IMG/VR virus record: IMGVR_UViG_2690316267_000013
Length of the DNA: 10,743 bases
Direction: 5' to 3' (one strand)
Source: a virus
Lineage: Duplodnaviria; Heunggongvirae; Uroviricota; Caudoviricetes
The notes below the pieces were generated by a model. The model was not told the DNA's origin. It ran no database searches and saw only the letters and a list, made by a program, of their open reading frames with translations. Numbering within the stretch: the first letter of the stretch is position 1; every line of letters begins with the position of its first letter. Below are positions 1 through 10,743 of this stretch, one piece after another. A program made the position numbers and the translations under genes.

Positions 1-2334
1 TCAGGTTGTTGCAGGGTCGTCACATTTTGGCAGCCAGTCGCCGTAGCTTTCCTCTTTCAGCGTCAGGTTGGTCTGTATCCCCTGTTTGGTATGGCGCTTC
101 TCGTAATTCAGTCCGTATTCCTTCAGCATCACCGGCAGCCCCAGCCCGAACATTTTCAGACTGAGTACGTTCCGGTAGCCGTTTGCCTCCATGTAGGCCA
201 GATAGGCGTGATAGAGGTATTTACGGTAATTGCGCGGGATGATACTCGCGTTCCCCATATACATGCCGCTGGTCTGCGGCAGGGTTTCCAGATAGCCGAT
301 AAAATCAAACGTCGGGTCGGCATCCCGTTTGATGTTCAGCGCCTCGTCTGAGTTCTGCTGGGACTGAAGCAGTGACCGGGCGAGCATCGGGTCGCTGAAC
401 TTCTGCATCAGGTGACGCACGATGACCGCCAGCTCGCGGGTGATTTTGTCCTTAAGCTGCGGGTCGCGCTCCTGCGGGGCTATCTGTTCCGGGAAGTGAA
501 TAATCACCCGCCGGCGTGACACGCCGCCGCTGCGGTCGGTGAAGCGCATCGGGTTATTGTTCACGGCCAGAATCACCGCCGGGATGTGCGTGGAGTACGC
601 ATCCCGGTATTTCGGGTCAACGGACACCGCATCGCCGCCGGTGATGGCCTTGAGTCCGGCTCCGTCGCCGCTCCATTTTTCCTGGTCCGGCAGGCGTATC
701 AGTGAGAAGCCAGTTAACGCGGCACGTTCACGCGGGGATTCCAGCGTCTCAATGGTGGCCGACGTGGCGTTATCTTCCCCGGCCAGCAGGGTGGCTATTT
801 CGGCCATGATACTTTTGCCGCTGCCGCCGGGACCGGTCACCTCCAGAAAGAGCTGCCAGTCGTAGCGGTTTGCCAGCACCATAAACAGTGCGGCCAGAAT
901 CACGTCGCGTTTTTCCGCACGACCACCGGCGGCACGGTCAAGCCAGCGCCAGAACGCGGGGGCGTGGGTTTCCAGCGTTTCCCCTTCCACCGGCGGGGTG
1001 AAATCCACATCGCACAGGGTGCGCATCCAGTGTGACGGACTGTGCGGGTGGAACGTGCCGCTCTGCGTGTCGAGCACGCCGTTACGAAAGCCAATCAGGC
1101 GGCGGGAGGGGGCTTCCTGCTGCGGAATAATCAGCTTCAGGGTGTCCACCACGGAGGCCACCTTCCCGGAGGAGAACGGCGCGCGCAGCCGCTGAAACAG
1201 CCCGGCCACATCCCGGGCAAAGTCCTGTGGTGGCAGCACCTTCCAGACACCATTTTCATAACGGGACAGAAGCTGGCCGTTGGCATCGACCGCGAGCGCC
1301 TCGCCGTAATGCTCATAGATACGCATGGCCTTTTCGCTGGTACTCATGGCGGAAAACTCCGCTTCGCTCATGGTGTCGAACGGGCTTTCAGCCGGTGGCC
1401 GGATGGCATCATAAATGGCCTTACGGGTGGCTTCCCCGCCGTACTGCGTGAAGGCATCATTCCAGTCACCGAAGACCGGCGGCAGGGCAACAACACCTTC
1501 ACACGCATCTGCGGCTGCGGCGGCTTTTGTCTGGCCGTCACCGCTGAGGTCACGGTCAGCAGCAAGGACAATATGACAGGCCGGATGCTTCTGCCGGGCA
1601 AGGCTGGCCAGAGAAAGGAGGTTCACGGAAGAAAGCGCCACCATCACCGTTTCACCGGTCAGGTGATGTACGGTAAGTGCGGTCGCGTATCCCTCCGCTA
1701 TCCACAGACGTTTTCCGGCCTGATTCTGTCCTTCAAGGGTGTGACAGGTGCCCCTGACCTGTCCGCCTTTCAGGGTACGCTTACGGCCGTCAGCACTGAT
1801 TAACTGAAGGTTAACCAGTTCGCCGCTGTCGTCATACAGTGGCACCACAAGGTCACCGGCGCGCCAGCTCACGCCACCGGCTCTGTGTGTGCCGGTCAGC
1901 ATCCGGCATTCCCGGCCGGGAAAGCCCTTGCGGGTCAGGTAGGCGTTACCGGTTCCGGGACGGGTTTTTGCCATCAGGGTTTGTGCCAGTGCGGCGGCGT
2001 TCTTCCGGGCAGCGTCTGTTTCAGCAACGGCGGCGGCCGTCACTGCCGGGTCAGCCGGGGGCAGACTGCCGGTCACGGCAGCCACCTTTGCGGCCGCGTC
2101 GGACGGGGAGACACCAAACACCTTTTCAACCAGTTTCAGGCCGTCACCGGCACCACACTGATTGCAGTACCAGGTGCCGCGCCCCTCCCTGTCATCAAAA
2201 CGGAAGCGGTCACTCCCGCCACAGACCGGACAGGGCTGATGACGGTTTTTCAGCACCTGAATCCCCAGCGCCGGGAGAATACGCGGCCAGTGGCCGAGCG
2301 CATGGCTGACGGTGGCGGTTACGTTCATTTTCAT
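1..2334 (-). CDS. alpha: P4-type alpha replication protein: zinc-ribbon/TOPRIM primase fused to a P-loop helicase, 777 aa
   Basis: N-terminal Cys4 motif (CPVCGG...CNQCG), TOPRIM acidic motif (LAADRD), Walker A (GPGGSGKS). Length is identical to P4 alpha. SD aaggag lies about 9 nt upstream of the ATG at 2332-2334. Stop codon at 1-3. Confidence 0.9.
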   Translation of the reverse strand: MKMNVTATVSHALGHWPRILPALGIQVLKNRHQPCPVCGGSDRFRFDDREGRGTWYCNQCGAGDGLKLVEKVFGVSPSDAAAKVAAVTGSLPPADPAVTAAAVAETDAARKNAAALAQTLMAKTRPGTGNAYLTRKGFPGRECRMLTGTHRAGGVSWRAGDLVVPLYDDSGELVNLQLISADGRKRTLKGGQVRGTCHTLEGQNQAGKRLWIAEGYATALTVHHLTGETVMVALSSVNLLSLASLARQKHPACHIVLAADRDLSGDGQTKAAAAADACEGVVALPPVFGDWNDAFTQYGGEATRKAIYDAIRPPAESPFDTMSEAEFSAMSTSEKAMRIYEHYGEALAVDANGQLLSRYENGVWKVLPPQDFARDVAGLFQRLRAPFSSGKVASVVDTLKLIIPQQEAPSRRLIGFRNGVLDTQSGTFHPHSPSHWMRTLCDVDFTPPVEGETLETHAPAFWRWLDRAAGGRAEKRDVILAALFMVLANRYDWQLFLEVTGPGGSGKSIMAEIATLLAGEDNATSATIETLESPRERAALTGFSLIRLPDQEKWSGDGAGLKAITGGDAVSVDPKYRDAYSTHIPAVILAVNNNPMRFTDRSGGVSRRRVIIHFPEQIAPQERDPQLKDKITRELAVIVRHLMQKFSDPMLARSLLQSQQNSDEALNIKRDADPTFDFIGYLETLPQTSGMYMGNASIIPRNYRKYLYHAYLAYMEANGYRNVLSLKMFGLGLPVMLKEYGLNYEKRHTKQGIQTNLTLKEESYGDWLPKCDDPATT

Positions 2335-2348
2335 GGTGTTGTTCTCCT

Positions 2349-2669
2349 TCAGTGCAGTACCGGCGCTTTTATGTGACGGGCACAGAGTTCATCCATCACA
2401 ACCAGCCCGAGAAAGGACAGCGACGGCGCGGCCTTCAGGGGGCCGGATTCCATTAAATCTTCCAGCAGGGCACAGGCTATCTGACGCCCTTTTTCCTCAC
2501 CGTGCTGGCGCAGATAAAAGCCTTCCAGCTCAGCGGCGATGGCCGCCTCCAGTGACTCAAGGGTGAGATGCGGGTAGCGGTGCTGACGTTCGCACACGGT
2601 CAGCCAGGCACAGGCGACAGCGCGACGGTAAAGGGCAGCGCGTAAGACGGGCGGTAAGGGTGTTTTCAT
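2349..2669 (-). CDS. cnr: 106-aa protein immediately upstream of alpha; Cnr-like (P4 copy-number regulator) by size and synteny
   Basis: ORF of 106 aa with SD gggagg about 7 nt upstream of the ATG. Its stop (2349-2351) overlaps the alpha SD region. Same size and position as P4 orf106/cnr. The functional call is by synteny only. Confidence 0.55.
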
Positions 2670-2804
2670 TTGCTTTCCTCCCTGTGACAGATGACTGCAT
2701 TCCGTGCCGGTTGCATTAACTGATAAGGCATATCTGCGTCTCCTGAAGACGTGCGTATCCCTGCGCGAATACGCACATTTAATTTTTCGGGTGTCGTTTT
2801 TTAA

Positions 2805-3260
2805 TTACAGATAATTGCGGTAACTGTTATCCGGGGTGATTTCCGGGTCAGGCTCCGTGCGGGGAATTTCCCGCCATTCCCGCGCCACCGGTGCCGCCCG
2901 GCTGACCGGAACAGTGTCCTGCGGGTAAATATCCAGATATTTCTCCCGCCATTTCTGTAATTCCGGGTCTCCGGCCATTTCTTTCAGTACCGCATGCCGG
3001 TTTACGGGGCTGCGTTTGAACAGGTCAGGACGGTCACAGGTAAATTCCCGCAGAAAACGCCCCAGCGGGATGTCTGTGGTGCGCCCGTCAGCGAGGATAC
3101 GCACAAGGATACTGAATTTACGGCGGTACGGGTTCCAGACAATGTCCGGGCAGCGGTACGGCATTTCCCACGGAATACCGTCTTCCAGAATGCCGACCAC
3201 GGCCACATCGGGAAAACCGGCAGAACGGTAAATCTCACCGGGCTGGGGAAAATCAAACAT
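2805..3260 (-). CDS. Hypothetical 151-aa left-operon protein (P4 orf151 position and size)
   Basis: ORF of 151 aa. Its ATG (3258-3260) overlaps the stop of the upstream 95-aa gene by 8 nt (ATGTTTGA), suggesting translational coupling. No motif recognised. Confidence 0.6.
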   Translation of the reverse strand: MFDFPQPGEIYRSAGFPDVAVVGILEDGIPWEMPYRCPDIVWNPYRRKFSILVRILADGRTTDIPLGRFLREFTCDRPDLFKRSPVNRHAVLKEMAGDPELQKWREKYLDIYPQDTVPVSRAAPVAREWREIPRTEPDPEITPDNSYRNYL

Positions 3261-3540
3261 GCGTCCTGTCTCCCCGGTCTTTCTGCTGGGCGAGAAAATC
3301 GCGGCACAGGCCTTTGGCTTTCAGCTCATTCAGCACAAAATCAATATCTTCATTCAGGTAGCTGAAAATATGCGGAATGTAGAGCTGATGCAGGCCGGAG
3401 AGTTCACGGTGAATCAAATCACCCCCAACAAACTGGGATACGGCGCTGGCGCGGTTGAGCTTATGGTAAGCCTCAATGCTGAGGTGTTCACGGGCGTCAT
3501 GACGTGCTGAGACGGTCTGAGGGGCTTTTTTATTACGCAC
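3253..3540 (-). CDS. 95-aa protein with GTG start; possible equivalent of P4 epsilon (helper-prophage derepression) by position
   Basis: GTG at 3538-3540 is preceded by a strong SD (GGAGG, 6-nt spacer). It reads to TGA at 3253-3255. The ORF track merges this into a longer 177-aa ORF, but the SD-GTG context supports the 95-aa product. The functional call is positional only. Confidence 0.45.
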
Positions 3541-3730
3541 GGGACACCTCCACCACCGGCAGACGGGCAGCAAGGGAGAGCACATAGTCACGGACAAGGG
3601 AACGGCGGGCGCTGCGTTCATCACCGGCGACGGTGCGAAGCATACAGATACGGGGATGACGGCCTGCGCGACGGACAGCCGCAAACACAAAGACAAATTC
3701 AGGGTGTGAGGGGGTAAGGGTTGTAGCCAT
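3533..3730 (-). CDS. 65-aa first ORF of the left operon, Kil-like by position; its SD overlaps a seqC-like RNA target site
   Basis: ATG at 3728-3730 with SD AAGGAGG (plus-strand 3739-3745). Its stop overlaps the GTG of the next gene (GTGCGTAA). The ORF track extends this frame to 199 aa, but the upstream part is low-complexity and covers the immunity RNA region. Confidence 0.45.
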
Positions 3731-3741
3731 GATGGCAGCCT

Positions 3742-3782
3742 CCTTGAAGTAACAGTTACAGCTACCACTGGAGTTCCTACGC
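3742..3782 (-). promoter_or_regulatory. seqC-like target site (ccttgaagtaac ... gagttcctacgc) complementary to seqB of the candidate CI RNA
   Basis: Shares two sequence blocks with the site at 3963-3990. Both blocks are complementary to 3805-3828. Overlaps the SD of the 65-aa ORF. Confidence 0.5.
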
Positions 3783-3789
3783 TCATGGG

Positions 3790-3875
3790 TGGTAGCCCGG
3801 ACGGGGGTAGGAATACCGGCCTTCAAGGAAACCGGCCAGCCCGAAGGCTGCCCCGCCCGGACCACCATTATCTGA
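3790..3875 (-). ncRNA. cI: Candidate CI-like immunity RNA containing a seqB element (approximate boundaries)
   Basis: Non-coding stretch between the two target-like sites. It contains 3805-3828 (gggggtaggaataccggccttcaagg), the reverse complement of blocks in both flanking sites. A stable hairpin with a UUCG tetraloop on the minus-strand RNA lies at 3837-3850, and a possible closing stem pairs ggtggtccgg with ccgggctaccacc. Ends were not determined. Confidence 0.4.
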
Positions 3876-3962
3876 CAGAGGCTACGGTTTAAAAACCACA
3901 GCCAGAAAAACAGGTGTGCCGAAGCAACGACGTAAAAAAAGACGCATGGCGCGTCATATGTC

Positions 3963-3990
3963 GCCTTGAAGTAACTCGGGTTCCTACGCC
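3963..3990 (-). promoter_or_regulatory. seqA-like target site in the leader of the early leftward transcript
   Basis: ccttgaagtaac at 3964-3975 and ggttcctacgcc at 3979-3990, both complementary to the seqB-like element at 3805-3828. Confidence 0.5.
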
Positions 3991-4018
3991 CGGCTGCCGA
4001 TTTTGCGGCAGCGGAAAA

Positions 4019-4048
4019 ACTATATCCGCAAATGCCGGAAAAAGGCAA
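4019..4048 (-). promoter_or_regulatory. Candidate sigma70 early leftward promoter (PLE-like)
   Basis: On the minus strand: -35 TTGCCT (4043-4048), 18-nt spacer, -10 TATAGT (4019-4024). This would start the transcript about 20 nt upstream of the seqA-like site. By eye only. Confidence 0.35.
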
Positions 4049-4083
4049 GCCAGAAAAAGGGAGTTTTTGCAGAGCGGGCATCA

Positions 4084-4350
4084 TCATGCGTCGTACCCCC
4101 GTTTGCGTCCGGCAATGCGTCCGGCCATCCATGCGGTGACTTCAGAGTGCAGCCAGGCCACATTTTTACCGCCAAGACTCACCTGCGGCGGAAATTCCCC
4201 CTTACGGATGAGTTCATAGATGGTCGAGCGTGACAGGCCGCACAGGTGCATCACTTCCGGCAGACGTAAAAAACGCTCCTGCGTGATGTCCGGCAGCGGC
4301 ATCAGTGGCGTCACAGGGGCGGGAGACGGGGAAGAAAAAACAGCTTGCAT
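4084..4350 (-). CDS. vis: Vis/AlpA-family small HTH DNA-binding protein (late-promoter regulator and excision factor), 88 aa
   Basis: 88-aa ORF with SD gaggt about 7 nt upstream of the ATG. AlpA-like signature (LRLPEV...[16 protein letters not shown]). Same size and position as P4 vis (orf88). Confidence 0.75.
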
Positions 4351-4452
4351 CGGGCTACCTCGTTAATGTCCATACAGCACCGGATAAGTCCGTCCGGCTT
4401 CGGGTAGCGCTTTATTTTGTGAATATTTTTGGCAGACGCAACAGGGGGGATT

Positions 4453-4470
4453 TGTTCCGGCAGCCTTACA
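4453..4470 (-). promoter_or_regulatory. TGT-N12-ACA box (Delta/Ogr-type activator site) for the leftward late promoter (PLL-like) upstream of vis
   Basis: TGTtccggcagccttACA with exact 12-nt spacing, centred about 110 bp upstream of the vis ATG. Confidence 0.4.
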
Positions 4471-4496
4471 ATGACTGTGTGTTTTTTGTTCATTCC

Positions 4497-4525
4497 CACT
4501 TAAAGTCATTTAAAGCCACTTAAAG
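4497..4525. repeat. Three tandem 10-bp repeats CA(C/T)TTAAAG with one-helical-turn periodicity
   Basis: cacttaaag at 4497-4505, catttaaag at 4507-4515, cacttaaag at 4517-4525. Confidence 0.6.
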
Positions 4526-4629
4526 CAATTCGTAATTTTTATAGTGAAATACAAATCGTTTCTTCTTATTCATTCACGGCGAATTAATAAAAACAAACAG
4601 TAGTAAACAGCACAAAAAGTCCATGAGCG

Positions 4630-4733
4630 GGTGAACAGTGGTGAACAGACGGTGAACAGTCATTACTGCGATTGTTCACCCTTTAACTTACTGTATTACT
4701 TATCTTTTTTCTTATGGTGAACAGAGGTGAACA
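4630..4733. repeat. Iteron cluster: six copies of the P4 type-I octamer TGTTCACC (five as GGTGAACA, one inverted); putative alpha-binding origin
   Basis: GGTGAACA at 4630-4637, 4640-4647, 4651-4658, 4716-4723 and 4726-4733; TGTTCACC at 4673-4680. The cluster is flanked by a direct repeat aaacaaacagta at 4591-4602 and 4748-4759. Confidence 0.6.
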
Positions 4734-4812
4734 GTAAAATATAAAAAAACAAACAGTAAGCCGGTTTTTCCTGCGACCTTTTCCTGGCTTGCCGGTCTGA
4801 GGATGAGTCTCC

Positions 4813-4830
4813 TGTGTCAGGGCTGGCACA
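4813..4830 (+). promoter_or_regulatory. TGT-N12-ACA box (Delta/Ogr-type activator site) of the sid late promoter (Psid-like)
   Basis: TGTgtcagggctggcACA with exact 12-nt spacing, centred about 80 bp upstream of the sid ATG, consistent with a -55 activator site. Confidence 0.5.
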
Positions 4831-4902
4831 TCTGCAATGCGTCGTGTTGTTGTCCGGTGTACGTCACAATTTTCTTAATCTGAAGTGACGAGGAGCCGGA
4901 AA

Positions 4903-5637
4903 ATGTCTGACAACACCATCCCTGAATATCTGCAACCCGCACTGGCACAACTGGAAAAGGCCAGAGCCGCTCATCTTGAGAACGCCCGACTGATGGATGA
5001 GACCGTCAAGGCCATTGAACGGGCAGAGCAGGAAAAAAATGCGCTGGCGCAGGCCGACGGAAATGACGCTGATGACTGGCGCACAGCCTTTCGTGCAGCC
5101 GGTGGTGTCCTGAGCGACGAGCTGAAACAGCGCCACATTGAGCGCGTGGCACGCCGGGAGCTGGTACAGGAATATGACAATCTGGCCGTGGTGCTGAATT
5201 TTGAACGTGAACGCCTGAAAGGGGCGTGTGACAGCACGGCCACCGCCTACCGGAAGGCACATCATCACCTTCTGAGTCTGTATGCAGAGCATGAGCTGGA
5301 ACACGCCCTGAATGAAACCTGTGAGGCGCTTGTCCGGGCAATGCATCTGAGTATCCTGGTACAGGAAAATCCGCTCGCCAACACCACCGGCCATCAGGGC
5401 TACGTCGCACCGGAAAAGGCTGTCATGCAGCAGGTGAAATCATCGCTGGAACAGAAAATTAAACAGATGCAAATCAGCCTCACCGGCGAGCCGGTTCTCC
5501 GGCTGACCGGACTGTCAGCGGCAACACTCCCGCACATGGATTATGAGGTGGCAGGCACACCGGCACAGCGCAAGGTGTGGCAGGACAAAATAGACCAGCA
5601 GGGAGCAGAGCTTAAGGCCAGAGGACTGCTGTCATGA
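4903..5637 (+). CDS. sid: Sid, capsid size-determination external scaffold protein, 244 aa
   Basis: ATG at 4903 preceded by SD aggag with a 7-nt spacer; the ORF track starts 18 nt earlier at an in-frame GTG at 4885. Length from the ATG equals P4 Sid. Coiled-coil-like, Ala/Glu/Leu-rich sequence. Stop overlaps the delta start (ATGA). Confidence 0.85.
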   Translation: MSDNTIPEYLQPALAQLEKARAAHLENARLMDETVKAIERAEQEKNALAQADGNDADDWRTAFRAAGGVLSDELKQRHIERVARRELVQEYDNLAVVLNFERERLKGACDSTATAYRKAHHHLLSLYAEHELEHALNETCEALVRAMHLSILVQENPLANTTGHQGYVAPEKAVMQQVKSSLEQKIKQMQISLTGEPVLRLTGLSAATLPHMDYEVAGTPAQRKVWQDKIDQQGAELKARGLLS

Positions 5638-6134
5638 TTTACTGCCCGTCGTGTGGACATGTTGCTCACACCCGTCGCGCACATTTCATGGACGATGGCA
5701 CCAAGATAATGATTGCACAGTGCCGGAATATTTATTGCTCTGCGACATTTGAAGCGAGTGAAAGCTTTTTCTCTGACAGTAAAGATTCAGGAATGGAATA
5801 CATTTCAGGCAAACAGAGATACCGCGATTCACTGACGTCGGCCTCCGGCAGTATGAAACGCCCGAAAAGAATGCTTGTTACCGGATATTGTTGTCGGAGA
5901 TGTAAAGGCCTTGCACTGTCAAGAACATCGCGGCGTCTGTCTCAGGAAGTCACCGAGCGTTTTTATGTGTGCACGGATCCGGGCTGTGGTCTGGTGTTTA
6001 AAACGCTTCAGACCATCACCCGCTTCATTGTCCGCCCGGTCACGCCGGACGAACTGGCAGAACGCCTGCATGAAAAACAGGAACTGCCGCCAGTACGGTT
6101 AAAAACACAATCATATTCGCTGCGTCTGGAATGA
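5634..6134 (+). CDS. delta: Delta, late transcription activator with two Ogr-like zinc-finger modules, 166 aa
   Basis: Two Cys4 modules (CPSCGH...CRNIYC and CRRCKG...CTDPGC). Length equals P4 Delta. Start is coupled to the sid stop. Confidence 0.85.
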   Translation: MIYCPSCGHVAHTRRAHFMDDGTKIMIAQCRNIYCSATFEASESFFSDSKDSGMEYISGKQRYRDSLTSASGSMKRPKRMLVTGYCCRRCKGLALSRTSRRLSQEVTERFYVCTDPGCGLVFKTLQTITRFIVRPVTPDELAERLHEKQELPPVRLKTQSYSLRLE

Positions 6135-6207
6135 GGGCTGCCGGTTAACACCGGCCGTCGCCACACACCGTATTTTTATTCTTCAGCATGATGAGAAAGA
6201 GATAACG

Positions 6208-6780
6208 ATGGAAAGCACAGCCTTACAGCAGGCCTTTGACACCTGTCAGAATAACAAAGCAGCATGGCTGCAACGCAAAAATGAGCTGGCTGCGGCCGAA
6301 CAGGAATATCTGCGGCTTCTGTCAGGAGAAGGCAGAAACGTCAGTCGCCTGGACGAATTACGCAATATTATCGAAGTCAGAAAATGGCAGGTGAATCAGG
6401 CCGCCGGTCGTTATATTCGTTCGCATGAAGCCGTTCAGCACATCAGCATCCGCGACCGGCTGAATGATTTTATGCAGCAGCACGGCACAGCACTGGCGGC
6501 GGCACTGGCACCGGAGCTGATGGGCTACAGTGATCTGACGGCCATTGCCCGAAACTGTGCCATACAGCGTGCCACAGATGCCCTGCGTGAAGCCCTCCTG
6601 TCCTGGCTTGCGAAGGGTGAAAAAATTAATTATTCCGCACAGGATAGCGACATTTTAACGACCATCGGATTCAGGCCTGACGCGGCTTCGGTGGATGACA
6701 GCCGTGAAAAATTCACCCCTGCGCAGAACATGATTTTTTCGCGTAAAAGTGCGCAACTGGCATCACGTCAGTCTGTGTAA
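6208..6780 (+). CDS. psu: Psu, polarity suppression (Rho antagonist) and capsid decoration protein, 190 aa
   Basis: 190-aa ORF, last gene of the sid-delta-psu operon, directly upstream of cos. Same length and position as P4 Psu. Confidence 0.85.
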   Translation: MESTALQQAFDTCQNNKAAWLQRKNELAAAEQEYLRLLSGEGRNVSRLDELRNIIEVRKWQVNQAAGRYIRSHEAVQHISIRDRLNDFMQQHGTALAAALAPELMGYSDLTAIARNCAIQRATDALREALLSWLAKGEKINYSAQDSDILTTIGFRPDAASVDDSREKFTPAQNMIFSRKSAQLASRQSV

Positions 6781-6810
6781 AATTCCCCGAAAATCCGCCC
6801 GTTTTTACTG

Positions 6811-6849
6811 AAAAAAGCCATGCATCGATAAGGTGCATGGCTTTGCATG
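6811..6849. terminator. Hairpin terminator after psu, bidirectional (strong on minus strand, weaker on plus)
   Basis: 9-bp stem agccatgca/tgcatggct (6816-6824 and 6834-6842) with a 9-nt loop. It is flanked by A6 on the left (a U6 tract for minus-strand transcripts) and ttgcatgcgttt on the right. Confidence 0.5.
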
Positions 6850-6944
6850 CGTTTCCCTGCCTCATTTTCTGCAGACCGCGCCATTCCCGGCGCGGTCTGA
6901 GCGTGTCAGTGCAACTGCATTAAAACCGCCCCGCAAAGCGGGCG

Positions 6945-6963
6945 GGCGAGGCGGGGAAAGCAC
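6945..6963. other. cos site: 19-nt P2/P4-type cohesive-end sequence GGCGAGGCGGGGAAAGCAC
   Basis: Exact match to the 19-nt cohesive end shared by P2 and P4 as I recall it. Located between psu and the cargo gene, as in P4. Flanked by inverted repeats at 6872-6899 and 6977-7015. Confidence 0.7.
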
Positions 6964-7198
6964 TGCGCGCCCCCGGTTGGTGCTCGTTACTAATGTTTTT
7001 TGCGCCCGAGCACCGTCGGGAAGGGGCTGGGGGGGATAGGGGAGGTGCCTGACGTCGCGCGGTAATGTTGGTAAGTGTGCCGCTGATGGCTTCTGAGGGG
7101 AGTGGTAAATAGCCGCCTTTCGACGGTGTAGTGGGGAGAGTATTGCTTACAAACGTAATGAAATTGTTTGAGTAGCTAGGCTACTGCATAGGATTATT

Positions 7199-7228
7199 TT
7201 GTTCTGTTAATATATCCGTTAATATAGA
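7199..7228 (+). promoter_or_regulatory. Candidate sigma70 promoter of the cargo gene
   Basis: -35 TTGTTC (7199-7204), about 18-nt spacer, -10 TATAGA (7223-7228) in an AT-rich stretch. Direct repeat gttaatata at 7202/7205-7213 and 7219-7227 overlaps the spacer. By eye only. Confidence 0.3.
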
Positions 7229-7254
7229 TAGATTGATCCAATTGAGTTTAAGGA

Positions 7255-8964
7255 ATGAGTATGTTTCAGATATCAGCTGGAGTGTTCTTTGATTTAGATA
7301 AAATAGAAAAACACGATGGCACATTTGTTTTTTATTCAAATGTTGATGTGTCTTTCTCGGTGGAAAACACCTCCCCTCTTTTTAAAGCAAATAAAATAAG
7401 TCATGATGGTATAAACTGTTATGTGGTAAACTATACTCTCCTGACCGAAAAACCAGAACGAATTGAAGCTGGAGTCGTAGTTAGGGCTGGTGATGAGGAT
7501 TATAGGCAACAATTTATTTTATTATGGGAATTCTATTTTGATTGTGTGGCTAGAGTAGAAAAAGAATCGGTTAAAAAAATATGTGCATTATCAAATTTTA
7601 ATAAACATCACTCAAAAATTGCGCTTGAAGTTGCCCCATATTTAGTGGAGATTAATCGAAGAGTTTCATTTGATGATGTCTCTGGGTTTTCTGCTTTTAT
7701 TAAAGATGTAGTGAATCTAAATAGATCTGCCTTTAAATCTTTAATGGCAGCGTTAAAAATAATTAGTGATTCAAAAGAATCATTGTCAACCAACTTTGAC
7801 CTGACTTATTCCATGTTAGTCTATGCCTTGGAGTCTTTGTCTCAAAGAAATGATAACTATAAGTCTGATTGGGATGACTACGATCAAAAAACCAGAGGTG
7901 AATTAGAGTCTGTATTTGAGCATATGCCTGGTGAGGATGTTTGTAAAATTAAATCAATACTTATTGAAGGCAAACAATTCAGATTACAAAAAAGGTTCAA
8001 AGATTTTATACTGAAAAATCTTGAAGAAAATTATTTCAATGAAACAGAGAGATATCCAATCCGCTATAGCTTCCTTAGTAGAGCTTTAGATAATTTATAC
8101 AAAATCAGGTCTTCTTTTGTCCATGAGCTTAAGCCACTTGATGCAATGATCTCGAAAGCCTACAATCCTGTTGGTGATTGTCTGGTTCTTTTTGGCGAAC
8201 CTCACTTCAGTTACTCTGGATTGCTTCGACTTCTTCGCCATGTGATAATAAATTTTTGCCGTAAAAACTACAGTCAAAAAAGAGAGTCTGTTAATTGGGT
8301 GATGGAAACATCGGGTGTAATGGTTGCAGAGATATCTGCACAATATTGGCTCTGGAATGCAGACGGATTTACAGCTAAAAGTATAGCGAAGTGGTTTAGT
8401 GAATACCTAAATATGTTAAATTTAGGCGAAGTCACTGATTTGCAGTCTATCATGGACAAAATTGAGATAATCTATGATCAATCCAAAAAAGAATATAAAA
8501 ATGGGTTGTTGCATTTTTATTTCTTATATAACTTAATGCATAATGGAAATAAGGGTGAATGGCTTGAGTTTGCGAACAAGCGAAGTTCTATACTTGTTTG
8601 TGATATATATTGGTATTCATGCTCTCCATATTTATATAAATCATTTACTAATGTTTCAAATGGTATTGCTGATATAAAAACATTGAGAAACTTTTTGTCT
8701 TGTTTTAACGAATATGATAAAAATAAATTTAAGCCAAATCGTTTAAATCTCCCTGCAATGACCGAAGTAATTATGTTGGCTTGCGCAGCAAATTCATTCT
8801 TCAGAATTGGAATGTATCAAGACTATGTTTTAATGGGCAATAGAGCGATGAGAGAAATTGCTTCAGTAAAAGATGTATTTTATTATATAAAAGAACGATT
8901 AAGTAATTCACAACTTATTGAATTGGACGAGTGCTTGAGATTGTATAGAAAAAAGGGGGGCTAA
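7255..8964 (+). CDS. Low-GC cargo protein of unknown function in the cos-int hotspot (569 aa from the first ATG; 567 aa from the better-placed ATG at 7261); candidate anti-phage or abortive-infection protein
   Basis: Long uninterrupted ORF with SD aagga 6 nt before the ATG at 7261. Composition is AT-rich and Lys/Asn/Ile/Phe/Tyr-rich, contrasting with the GC-rich satellite core. No Walker A and no YxDD motif. One R-x4-H motif (IRSSFVHE, codons at 8104-8127). Occupies the position where P4 carries gop-beta-cII. Confidence 0.8.
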   Translation: MSMFQISAGVFFDLDKIEKHDGTFVFYSNVDVSFSVENTSPLFKANKISHDGINCYVVNYTLLTEKPERIEAGVVVRAGDEDYRQQFILLWEFYFDCVARVEKESVKKICALSNFNKHHSKIALEVAPYLVEINRRVSFDDVSGFSAFIKDVVNLNRSAFKSLMAALKIISDSKESLSTNFDLTYSMLVYALESLSQRNDNYKSDWDDYDQKTRGELESVFEHMPGEDVCKIKSILIEGKQFRLQKRFKDFILKNLEENYFNETERYPIRYSFLSRALDNLYKIRSSFVHELKPLDAMISKAYNPVGDCLVLFGEPHFSYSGLLRLLRHVIINFCRKNYSQKRESVNWVMETSGVMVAEISAQYWLWNADGFTAKSIAKWFSEYLNMLNLGEVTDLQSIMDKIEIIYDQSKKEYKNGLLHFYFLYNLMHNGNKGEWLEFANKRSSILVCDIYWYSCSPYLYKSFTNVSNGIADIKTLRNFLSCFNEYDKNKFKPNRLNLPAMTEVIMLACAANSFFRIGMYQDYVLMGNRAMREIASVKDVFYYIKERLSNSQLIELDECLRLYRKKGG

Positions 8965-8980
8965 CCCCTTTTATTTTTAA
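8949..8980. terminator. Bidirectional intrinsic terminator shared by the convergent cargo and int genes
   Basis: aaaagggggg-ctaa-cccctttt hairpin (G/C stem 8955-8968) with T-tracts on both sides (tttatttttaa on plus; U6 on minus). The stop codons of both genes (8962-8964 and 8961-8963) lie inside the loop. Confidence 0.5.
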
Positions 8981-10157
8981 CGTATTCTCCCCACCAATCC
9001 ATCAATTCAATTCGCTGCACGAGATAAGTAGAACGATTGTATGCTTTTCTAACTTCATTTTTATCACTGTGGGCTAAGGCAGACTCGATAACATCAGGAT
9101 TTAATCCAGCTTCATTCATGGCTGTACTTGCTATTGAACGTAATCCATGGGCAACTAATTTTCCGCCAAAACCAATACGTTTTAAAGCTGCATTTGCAGT
9201 CTGACTGTTCATTGGTTTCTTTGGGTCATTCCGACTCGGAAAAACATATTCACGATGAGCACTAATAGGCTTCATCACATTAAGAATCTCTAATGCCTGA
9301 GATGATAGAGGAATTATGTGTTCCCGTTTAGCCTTCATCCGTTCGGCAGGAATCGTCCAGAGCTTTGCATGAAGATCGATTTCTTCCCACCGAGTACTGG
9401 AGGCTTCAGAAGGGCGCACAAGAGTCAGGAGTTGCCATTCAATTAGACAGCGAGTCGGGATAGACAGATTTGACATGACTAAAGAACGCATCAGCTTTGG
9501 TAATTCTTCAGGTCGAAGCGTCGGCATGTTTTGTTTTTTTGGCTTTTCGAAGGCCATGCCAACACCTGATGCTGGGTTTGCATCAATCAAGCCAGTGTTA
9601 ACCGCATAAATCATTATTTCGTTAATGCGTTGCACCAGACGACGTACAGTCTCTAATGCCCCACGAGCTTTGACTGGCTCAAGTGCTTCGACCAATGTTC
9701 TAGCTTTGATCTGCTGAACGGGCATCTCACCAACGGCGGGGAATACATCTTTTTCCAATGAGCGCCAAATATCTTTTGCATAATCAGGGGTAACACTTTT
9801 GCTTTTGAGCTGAAACCAATTAGCGGCGACCGTCGAGAAAATACTGTCCTGTGCGATTTGCTGCTGTTCCTCTGCAATTTCAGCTTGAATTTGCGGGTCA
9901 ATTCCGTTGGCTAACAAGGAAAGGTAATCCGCTCTTAAGCGTCGGGCGTCAGCAAGTGAAAGGGCTGGGAAGGCTCCTAGCCCCATCATTGTCCGTTGCT
10001 TTGTTGCCGGACGTTGATAACGGAAACGCCATAACTTCTTACCGTTCGTTTTAACGAGTAGAAAAAGACCATCGCCATCATGCAACGTTAGATCCTTTTC
10101 TAACGCTTTAGCGCGCAGTACTTCTGTGTTGGTCAGGGGGCGTGTCGTTCTTGCCAA
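8961..10157 (-). CDS. int: P4-type tyrosine integrase (N-terminal arm-binding domain plus catalytic domain), 398 aa, TTG start
   Basis: N-terminus typical of P4-family integrases (LTNTEV...GLFLLVKTNGKKLWRFRYQ...LGAFPALSLADAR). Catalytic-type HGLR and C-terminal Tyr region (RKAYNRSTY). SD gaaggag lies 8 nt upstream of the TTG at 10155-10157. Adjacent to and co-oriented with ssrA. Confidence 0.9.
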   Translation of the reverse strand: MARTTRPLTNTEVLRAKALEKDLTLHDGDGLFLLVKTNGKKLWRFRYQRPATKQRTMMGLGAFPALSLADARRLRADYLSLLANGIDPQIQAEIAEEQQQIAQDSIFSTVAANWFQLKSKSVTPDYAKDIWRSLEKDVFPAVGEMPVQQIKARTLVEALEPVKARGALETVRRLVQRINEIMIYAVNTGLIDANPASGVGMAFEKPKKQNMPTLRPEELPKLMRSLVMSNLSIPTRCLIEWQLLTLVRPSEASSTRWEEIDLHAKLWTIPAERMKAKREHIIPLSSQALEILNVMKPISAHREYVFPSRNDPKKPMNSQTANAALKRIGFGGKLVAHGLRSIASTAMNEAGLNPDVIESALAHSDKNEVRKAYNRSTYLVQRIELMDWWGEYVKNKRG

Positions 10158-10176
10158 TTTGGCCGCTCCTTCATGA

Positions 10177-10230
10177 ATTGGTATACGCGTTTAGGTATAC
10201 ATCCTACCGTATACCTAAACGTATACCAAT
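10177..10230. promoter_or_regulatory. Imperfect palindrome with four GGTATAC motifs between the int SD and ssrA; candidate Int/Vis operator or attP arm-type sites
   Basis: Left arm attggtatacgcgtttaggtatac (10177-10200) and right arm gtatacctaaacgtataccaat (10209-10230) are near-perfect reverse complements separated by 8 bp. GGTATAC occurs at 10180-10186 and 10194-10200, and inverted at 10209-10215 and 10222-10228. Confidence 0.5.
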
Positions 10231-10271
10231 AATCACTGGATTTAGCTGGATATCCTCGGACAACGGTAGAC

Positions 10272-10306
10272 ACAAAAAAGCCCGCAGAGCTTGTGCTATG
10301 CGGGCT
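10272..10306 (-). terminator. Intrinsic terminator downstream of ssrA, lying inside the element
   Basis: 8-bp stem agcccgca/tgcgggct (10279-10286 and 10299-10306) with a 12-nt loop, followed on the minus strand by UUUUUGUG (plus 10271-10278). Confidence 0.5.
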
Positions 10307-10341
10307 TTCAGGATTTCTCCGGACGTATCCGGAAGAGCAAG

Positions 10342-10704
10342 TGGTGGAGCTGGCGGGAGTTGAACCCGCGTCCGAAATTCCTACATCCTCGGTACTACAT
10401 GCTTAGTCAGTCTTTACATTCGCTTGCCAGCTGCGGACGGACACGCCACTAACAAACTAGCCTGATTAAGTTTTAACGCTTCAACCCCAGGCAGGGCTTC
10501 CACGCGATCTCTTTTGGGTTTGACCTCTCTTGATCCCCGTCCTAAGAGCGGAGGCTAGGGAGAGAGGGCTCTAAGCAGGTTATTAAGCTGCTAAAGCGTA
10601 GTTTTCGTCGTTTGCGACTATTTTTTGCGGCTTTTTACGAGGCCAACCGCCCCTCGGCATGCACCTTGGGTTTCGCAAATCCCGTCGAATCCAGAATCAG
10701 CCCC
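10342..10704 (-). ncRNA. ssrA: tmRNA (SsrA), 363 nt, enterobacterial type
   Basis: The reverse complement reads GGGGCTGATTCTGGATTCGACGGG ... and ends ...GTTCAACTCCCGCCAGCTCCACCA, matching E. coli tmRNA as I recall it. It includes the tag-peptide reading frame GCAAACGACGAAAACTACGCTTTAGCAGCTTAA (ANDENYALAA stop) at 10583-10615. Confidence 0.95.
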
Positions 10705-10743
10705 AATGTGTAAAGGTAAGTATACCAGATTTATGAGCGCCAT
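10705..10743 (-). promoter_or_regulatory. ssrA promoter region (-10 TATACT at 10719-10724 on the minus strand; -35 truncated by the window edge)
   Basis: TATACT lies 15-20 nt upstream of the mature tmRNA 5' end, consistent with a short precursor leader. Confidence 0.35.

Follow-up and report, generated by a model that had tools for sequence, protein, structure and literature searches.

The immunity factor of satellite phage P4, CI, is a small stable RNA of ~69 nt that is cut from the transcript of the promoter PLE, with PNPase also named in this connection. The CI RNA is listed as a substrate of RNase P (PMC5499578); CI, its target sites seqA and seqC and premature termination have been described (PMC4825925), and CI-dependent premature termination and superinfection immunity are stated for P4 (PMC4825925, PMC10111431). 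Only transcripts from the upstream late promoter PLL yield translation of eta, the long frame that crosses the same region, and this translation is coupled to an alpA homolog (PMC10111431, summarising Forti et al. 1999). Translation of eta prevents termination, and kil is the nested 3′ part of eta (PMC10111431). The IsrK-like and C4-like RNAs of P4-like prophages are the seqA and CI RNA of the P4 literature (PMC3632133, PMC4825925). Here we describe the corresponding region in a viral sequence of IMG/VR (IMGVR_UViG_2690316267_000013); the whole stretch analysed, 10,743 nt, is called the window. The window is a P4-like satellite prophage of Escherichia coli integrated beside ssrA, and its minus strand at 3730-4048 very probably holds a P4-type immunity region that works by the P4 scheme.

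By that scheme, a PLE-type promoter would drive a leftward transcript that runs through seqA, a terminator, a spacer, CI and seqC. CI would be cut from this transcript as a small stable RNA exposing two short boxes, b1 in a loop and b2 in a junction, and on nascent PLE transcripts these would base-pair with their counterparts in seqA and seqC. Pairing at seqC would cover the kil Shine-Dalgarno and leave kil untranslated, and the untranslated RNA would be terminated before the replication genes epsilon, orf151, cnr and alpha; pairing at seqA would favour a stop at the early terminator. The prophage would stay silent and would likewise silence a superinfecting element if its boxes were the same. 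Transcripts from PLL would be read through, escaping termination because eta is translated through the region.

Anatomy of the P4-type immunity region

A preliminary description of this DNA, made from the letters and their open reading frames (ORFs), had proposed a candidate CI RNA whose seqB element is complementary to seqA- and seqC-like sites on either side. A repeat search and shuffle counts found the blocks where they had been placed. The direct repeat CCTTGAAGTAAC stands at 3742-3753 and 3964-3975 with 100% identity, and ACTGGAGTTCCTACGC (3767-3782) matches ACTCGGGTTCCTACGC (3974-3989) at 88%, with the block (A)GTTCCTACGC located at both of the latter positions. Inverted repeats connect 3741-3749 with 3821-3829 (9 nt, 100%), 3821-3828 with 3964-3971 (8 nt, 100%) and 3802-3813 with 3981-3992 (12 nt, 92%). 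Of the four copies of the word CCTTGAAG in the window, three fall in this region (shuffle mean 0.36; 0/200 shuffles reach 4), as do three of the four copies of GTAGGAA (shuffle mean 0.80; 2/200 shuffles reach 4). Both boxes of CI have exact complements of 7-9 nt in seqA and in seqC.

Three Rfam covariance models match the minus strand above threshold, with E-values of 1e-10 to 1e-16. The C4 antisense RNA family (RF01695) covers 3785-3872 with 86.1 bits against a gathering score of 45, over model positions 1-87 of 87, and isrK (RF01394) covers 3935-4012 at full length with 73.4 bits against a gathering score of 50. The third model, c4-a1b1 (RF03163), which represents upstream targets of C4 RNA, covers 3973-4025 with 49.6 bits, above its gathering score. 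P4, used as a positive control, gave C4 (74.9 bits) and isrK (60.8 bits) at the corresponding places and a c4-a1b1 score below threshold, and C4 and isrK matches were also found in nine relatives. Folding of the minus strand, which the preliminary description had suggested as a check, recovered a strand-specific CI structure as well as the hairpins and terminator of the leader. The minimum free energy of the CI stretch is -53.3 kcal/mol (z = -5.0) on the minus strand and -39.8 kcal/mol (z = -1.8) on the plus strand. The minimum free energy structure agrees with the C4 model in its long outer stem and two internal hairpins, and in 15 distinct CI sequences 100% of the cells of the stems are paired, three pairs showing compensatory changes. 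A plus-strand reading of the region was rejected: the ORFs at 3914-4219 and 4003-4233 have no Pfam match, and the plus-strand CI fold is far weaker.

Read in the direction of transcription, the region begins with a predicted constitutive promoter of the PLE type at 4019-4048 (minus strand), with a -35 TTGCCT at 4048-4043, an 18-nt spacer and a -10 TATAGT at 4024-4019. It is the sole promoter-like site in 3400-4600 and is identical in sequence to P4, and its -10 falls on the feature called 'consensus -10 sequence' in P4 record X02534 (965-970, mapped via alignment). Transcription would start at about 4012, and the isrK match begins at 4012. The leader (3935-4012, minus strand), an IsrK-like seqA RNA according to the isrK and c4-a1b1 matches and the fold, consists of a 5′ hairpin (4012-3993), a small hairpin with the b2′ box in its loop, a single-stranded b1′ box and an intrinsic terminator. 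Within it lies the upstream target seqA, GGGCGUAGGAACCCGAGUUACUUCAAGGCG (3962-3991, minus strand), whose b2′ box GUAGGAA is at 3987-3981 and whose b1′ box CUUCAAGG is at 3971-3964. The intrinsic-terminator-like hairpin, GACGCGCCAUGCGUC plus U7 (3934-3955, minus strand), follows directly after seqA; it is kept in all 15 CI types and makes up the 3′ hairpin in the isrK match.

Between the terminator and CI lies a variable spacer of 61 nt (3873-3933, minus strand), which is 45 nt shorter than that of P4 and strongly diverged, with the eta frame open throughout. The CI RNA gene, a member of the C4 antisense RNA family by RF01695, fold and stem covariation, occupies 3785-3872 on the minus strand. 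Its outer stem of 17 bp (3868-3852 with 3806-3790) is followed by hairpins 1 and 2. The b1 box CCUUGAAG (3828-3821) sits in the 12-nt loop of hairpin 2 and the b2 box UUCCUAC (3813-3807) in an 8-nt single-stranded junction; together the two boxes make up seqB. The downstream target seqC (3741-3784, minus strand) carries b2′ GUAGGAA at 3780-3774 and b1′ CUUCAAGGA at 3749-3741, the latter overlapping the kil Shine-Dalgarno GGAGG (3743-3739). The kil gene itself (3533-3730, minus strand, ATG at 3730), which would be the first to be translated on PLE transcripts, encodes an Icd-like protein of 65 aa (NCBIfam phage_ICD_like NF033153, 73 bits) nearly identical to P4 Kil.

The minus-strand order of a seqA target, a CI antisense element and a seqC target, as first drawn, is upheld by the Rfam matches and by covariation of the blocks in 63 related loci. 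The locus combines the marks of P4-type CI immunity: an RNA that fits the CI model, a seqB complementary to seqA and seqC, a PLE leader ahead of the replication operon, a seqC at the start region of kil, and a nested eta/kil frame that opens upstream of PLE. The proposal of a P4-type immunity region with a seqB-bearing CI RNA is thus supported by the P4 alignment, by the C4, isrK and c4-a1b1 matches and by the literature (PMC4825925, PMC3632133, PMC10111431).

Matched boxes and immunity specificity

Alignment with the P4 cI region, another check suggested at the outset, showed that the region aligns and that its flanks are ~100% identical. The two elements are virtually the same over two stretches, one running from ORF88 to the PLE leader and the other starting at the kil Shine-Dalgarno. 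The immunity cassette at 3741-3991 forms a sharply bounded island of divergence within these near-identical flanks (~70-80% identity, 45 nt shorter), and to judge from its sequence it looks like a cassette exchanged by recombination.

The target boxes of P4 read GUGAGAA and UUCACAGG where those of the window read GUAGGAA and CUUCAAGG, and the CI boxes of P4 read CCUGUGAA and UUCUCAC where those of the window read CCUUGAAG and UUCCUAC. Because all six boxes (in seqA, CI and seqC) differ from P4 in a matched fashion, the element probably has a different immunity specificity, i.e., it is predicted to be heteroimmune to P4. The predicted duplex of the window seqB is -31.6 kcal/mol with its own seqA and -25.7 kcal/mol with its own seqC, compared with -18.9 and -14.6 kcal/mol for the P4 seqB on the same two targets. 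The reverse crosses are similar, and the cognate duplexes are 10-13 kcal/mol better than the crosses between window and P4.

To place these boxes among related elements, we used 85 loci anchored on kil, five of them from among the genome matches listed and 80 from IMG/VR. Together with P4 and the window they gave 64 distinct upstream regions, of which 63 were analysed, the remaining one (L079) having too little upstream sequence. The preliminary description had held that a lack of conservation of the complementary blocks in related elements, together with the absence of a small RNA, would speak against it; the blocks in fact covary across the 63 distinct loci. These hold nine b1 alleles and six b2 alleles in ~15 combinations. 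In 58 of the 63, each of the four target boxes holds an exact complement, 7 nt or longer, of the locus's own CI, and none of 3272 non-cognate pairings with a different b1 allele matches at both sites. Across the leader, the two boxes are essentially the sole variable positions. This covariation gives strong comparative support, at the level of sequence, to a model in which CI pairs with seqA and seqC, and the catalogue of matched box alleles serves as independent in-silico support for that model.

The b1 and b2 alleles reassort freely; the b1 allele UUCUUCGAGG, for example, is seen with three different b2 alleles (L009-L088). Each allele is written at three interleaved places over ~290 nt (seqA, CI and seqC), and a joint change of the three sites could come about by patchy recombination or by mutation and compensation. 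It is tentatively possible, at somewhat less than an even chance in our estimate, that immunity specificity in P4-like satellites is set by a modular RNA code of two boxes. Were both boxes needed for repression, these loci would make up a collection of orthogonal, programmable antisense switches diversified in nature. Competition between satellites would be the driving force, and such a code would pose the evolutionary problem of how three interleaved sites change together.

Several loci depart from the common pattern or stand in the same genome. The CI type with b1 CCUAUGAC (L018 and L066; CI at ~1362-1449) has no perfect target of its own, with one mismatch in seqA and a deletion in seqC, and L066 and L076 are the two loci with a broken eta frame; L018, L066 and L076 may be decaying or immunity-escape variants. 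Two genomes carry a pair of satellites each (L011 and L084 in IMG 2531839450, L027 and L028 in IMG 2529293142), and the two satellites have neither box in common in one of these genomes and are of one type in the other.

Several points weigh against our reading of the locus as a working, P4-heteroimmune switch. The production, processing and ends of CI, the termination, the block of kil and immunity itself are carried over from P4 by analogy. The loci compared are close relatives (kil identity of 62% or more, in most cases 95% or more), so each box allele may reflect few independent events. The proposed heteroimmunity derives from predicted pairing, and, owing to the common scaffold that separates the boxes, the cross duplexes between window and P4 still reach -15 to -21 kcal/mol; at such energies, partial cross-immunity with P4 is conceivable.

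The eta/kil frame and competing readings

The ORF called mechanically across this region runs from an ATG at 4132 to 3533 on the minus strand (199 aa) and corresponds to P4 eta. A frame of 184 aa (3533-4087, minus strand) opens at the first ATG of ATGATGATG (4087-4085), and this start overlaps the ORF88 stop codon (4086-4084). The 184-aa frame spans PLE, seqA, CI and seqC and has kil nested within it. The same frame in P4 is a 214-aa ORF, in which the MMM start gives 197-199 aa. ORF88 (4084-4350, minus strand) encodes a Vis/AlpA-type helix-turn-helix protein (Pfam Phage_AlpA, 74 bits); it corresponds to P4 ORF88 and lies ahead of eta in the PLL transcript.

The preliminary description had taken the upstream half of the 199-aa ORF to be probably non-coding, a view contradicted by the open frame in relatives, by the spacer lengths and by the eta literature. 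In 84 of 86 relatives the kil frame continues upstream for 118 codons or more without a stop, and the other two reading frames close after 5-46 and 9-16 codons. The variable spacer measures 75, 81, 99, 111 or 120 nt, all multiples of three, and the two loci that break this rule are the two whose eta frame is broken. The amino acids encoded by the spacer differ between P4 and the window, with the frame kept. Selection seems to act on translatability and not on a particular peptide, which fits the read-through role of eta. RNA function and translation coexist on the eta stretch, and the idea that translation of the ORF would refute the RNA reading therefore rested on a false dichotomy.

Pfam Phage_ASH (PF10554) covers aa 37-146 of the 199-aa ORF, corresponding to 3695-4024. 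This span is exactly the stretch that encodes seqA, CI and seqC, and the conservation of the family may stem largely from RNA elements and not from a protein domain.

Among the readings that compete with a CI-based switch, the first concerns the PLE leader (3935-4012), which might act mainly as a trans-acting, IsrK-like small RNA, possibly alongside its role as a CI target. The full-length isrK match of 73.4 bits fits this idea, the seqA RNA has been called a structural homolog of IsrK (PMC4825925), and IsrK-like elements of P4-like prophages of Salmonella Typhi were required in transposon-directed insertion-site sequencing (TraDIS), by a mechanism that is unclear (PMC3632133). The binding of IsrK to Hfq and its trans-activation are described for Salmonella only (PMC4825925). 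The leader of the 63 loci, however, varies only at the two boxes that match CI, which points to CI pairing as the selected function, and we consider a mainly trans-acting leader unlikely.

The RNA elements could also be intact in a prophage that is itself a defective remnant, with a switch that is not expressed or controls nothing. Many genomic P4-like elements are cryptic, and the left end of this element lies outside the window. Yet the promoter, the terminator, CI, the four target boxes, the kil start and the eta frame are all intact and P4-like; epsilon, orf151, orf106 and the 777-aa alpha are open, and the integrase and sid, delta and psu are present. Moreover, 132 complete E. coli records carry the 301-nt region with at least 99% conservation, and together these observations make a dead remnant quite improbable.

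A purely protein-coding stretch, in which an Ash or 'cI' repressor would confer a protein-based immunity and the repeats would be incidental, is the reading that existing labels suggest. The P4 record NC_001609 labels a 137-aa ORF 'transcriptional repressor', PHROG 6928, of the same name, scores 289 bits, and both the Phage_ASH match and the conservation of the long open frame are what a protein would show. Protein constraint cannot explain the reverse-complement covariation of the boxes at three sites, nor would it call for three RNA covariance models above threshold with compensatory changes that keep the stems, and in the spacer P4 and the window have kept the frame but not the amino acids. 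In the primary literature on P4, a nonsense mutation in the ORF that kept the RNA and boxes intact reportedly left immunity in place. It is the CI RNA that is named as the immunity factor (PMC4825925, PMC10111431), and we regard an exclusively protein-based immunity as very improbable. Finally, a chance arrangement of short words, to which the shortness of the individual blocks (7-12 nt) might point, can be dismissed given that 0/200 shuffles reach the CCTTGAAG count, that the blocks covary and that the Rfam E-values are as low as stated above.

The surrounding element and its known relatives

Positions 1-6944, the left part of the window, share 98.1% identity with satellite phage P4 (X51522, 4636-11624) and hold alpha, orf106, orf151, epsilon, the immunity region, ORF88, ori, sid, delta and psu. 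The alpha ORF is full length at 777 aa; epsilon, orf151, orf106 and alpha are open and ~98% identical to P4, and epsilon matches the Pfam family Derepression. The homology to P4 ends at 6944, the cos end. Beyond it lie a 569-aa ORF (7255-8964, plus strand), a tyrosine integrase of 398 aa (8961-10157, minus strand; Arm-DNA-bind_3, Phage_int_M and Phage_integrase domains) and ssrA, the tmRNA gene (10342-10704, minus strand, 296 bits). The integrase directly adjoins ssrA, so that a non-P4 integrase stands at an ssrA site despite the 98% identity to P4 of the left 6.9 kb. The right part (6900-10743) matches E. coli chromosomes such as that of ATCC 8739 at 99.8%, and at least 80% of it is present in only 18 of 5426 E. 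coli genomes. The assignment to a P4-like satellite beside ssrA in E. coli follows from the P4 identity on the left together with the integrase, ssrA and the chromosomal match on the right.

The 569-aa ORF, between the end of P4 homology and the integrase, has no match in Pfam, NCBIfam or PHROG, and its aa 150-275 give a weak PADLOC match to Cas13-ApeA (E = 7e-6). It occupies the place where P4-like satellites have their variable cargo hotspot (PMC9122126), and for this reason it may be an uncharacterised anti-phage gene.

A related immunity region is present in 1713 of 5426 complete E. coli genomes, at 2085 places in all, with the exact allele in 132 records; strains 504237 and JNE25-001 have positions 3730-4030 at 100% identity. 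In an identical E. coli locus (L089; NZ_AP045049.1, 1004-1552), the Prokaryotic Genome Annotation Pipeline (PGAP) gives the upstream part of eta as an 'ash family protein' pseudogene and kil as Icd-like, and calls no non-coding RNA. The RefSeq record of P4 (NC_001609, P4p10) keeps the superseded 137-aa 'cI' ORF as a transcriptional repressor, and PHROG 6928 inherits the name. Annotation pipelines thus miss the real regulator here, calling no RNA and splitting eta. The P4-type mechanism has been known since the 1990s and is detectable with Rfam by default; new here are at most the specificity allele and the picture of two reassorting boxes. Within the limited literature that could be searched we found no published catalogue of box alleles or two-box code, and a survey of P4-like elements (PMC8628076) is silent on RNA immunity. 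The box catalogue points to a set of antisense switches that would be orthogonal to one another, and it suggests how mutual exclusion among satellites could be predicted.

Compared with P4, the locus has the same gene order, flanks, promoter, terminator hairpin, CI scaffold, kil start and nested eta/kil frame. It differs in the compensated substitutions of the CI outer stem, in the spacer, whose 45 missing nt give an eta of 184 aa and not the 199 aa of P4, and in the position of the element at ssrA with another integrase and other cargo. The integration site of P4 is leuX. The retronphage phiR73 integrates at selC and in this differs from the element described here, which is at ssrA. Sabbattini et al. 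in 1996 (Virology 216:389; cited in PMC7567579) reportedly described phiR73 as a P4-like element with the same CI/seqA/seqC design and a specificity differing from that of P4, which makes it the published precedent for heteroimmune alleles.

The IsrK/STnc1160 RNA of the Salmonella prophage Gifsy-1 is a further relative. The whole isrK model, terminator included, is matched by the leader of our locus, and in both systems a C4-like RNA lies downstream (PMC4825925). In Gifsy-1, the short IsrK isoform activates translation of orf45-anrP in trans, the gene being carried on the long isoform (PMC4825925); the downstream genes differ from those found here.

The C4 RNA of phages P1 and P7 belongs to the same Rfam family and clan (RF01695, RF03163) as the RNA described here and works with two boxes in a like manner: of its targets a1/b1 and a2/b2, which lie ahead of icd-ant, one set stands upstream and the other at the ribosome-binding site of the Icd-like gene. 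Like the CI RNA, it is processed by RNase P (PMC5499578). The P1/P7 arrangement c4-icd-ant differs from the locus in that no ant follows kil, the next genes being epsilon, orf151, orf106 and alpha, and in that the protein repressor partner C1 has no counterpart here. Whereas the P1 operon ends in the antirepressor ant, the operon of the present element leads into the satellite replication genes epsilon and alpha.

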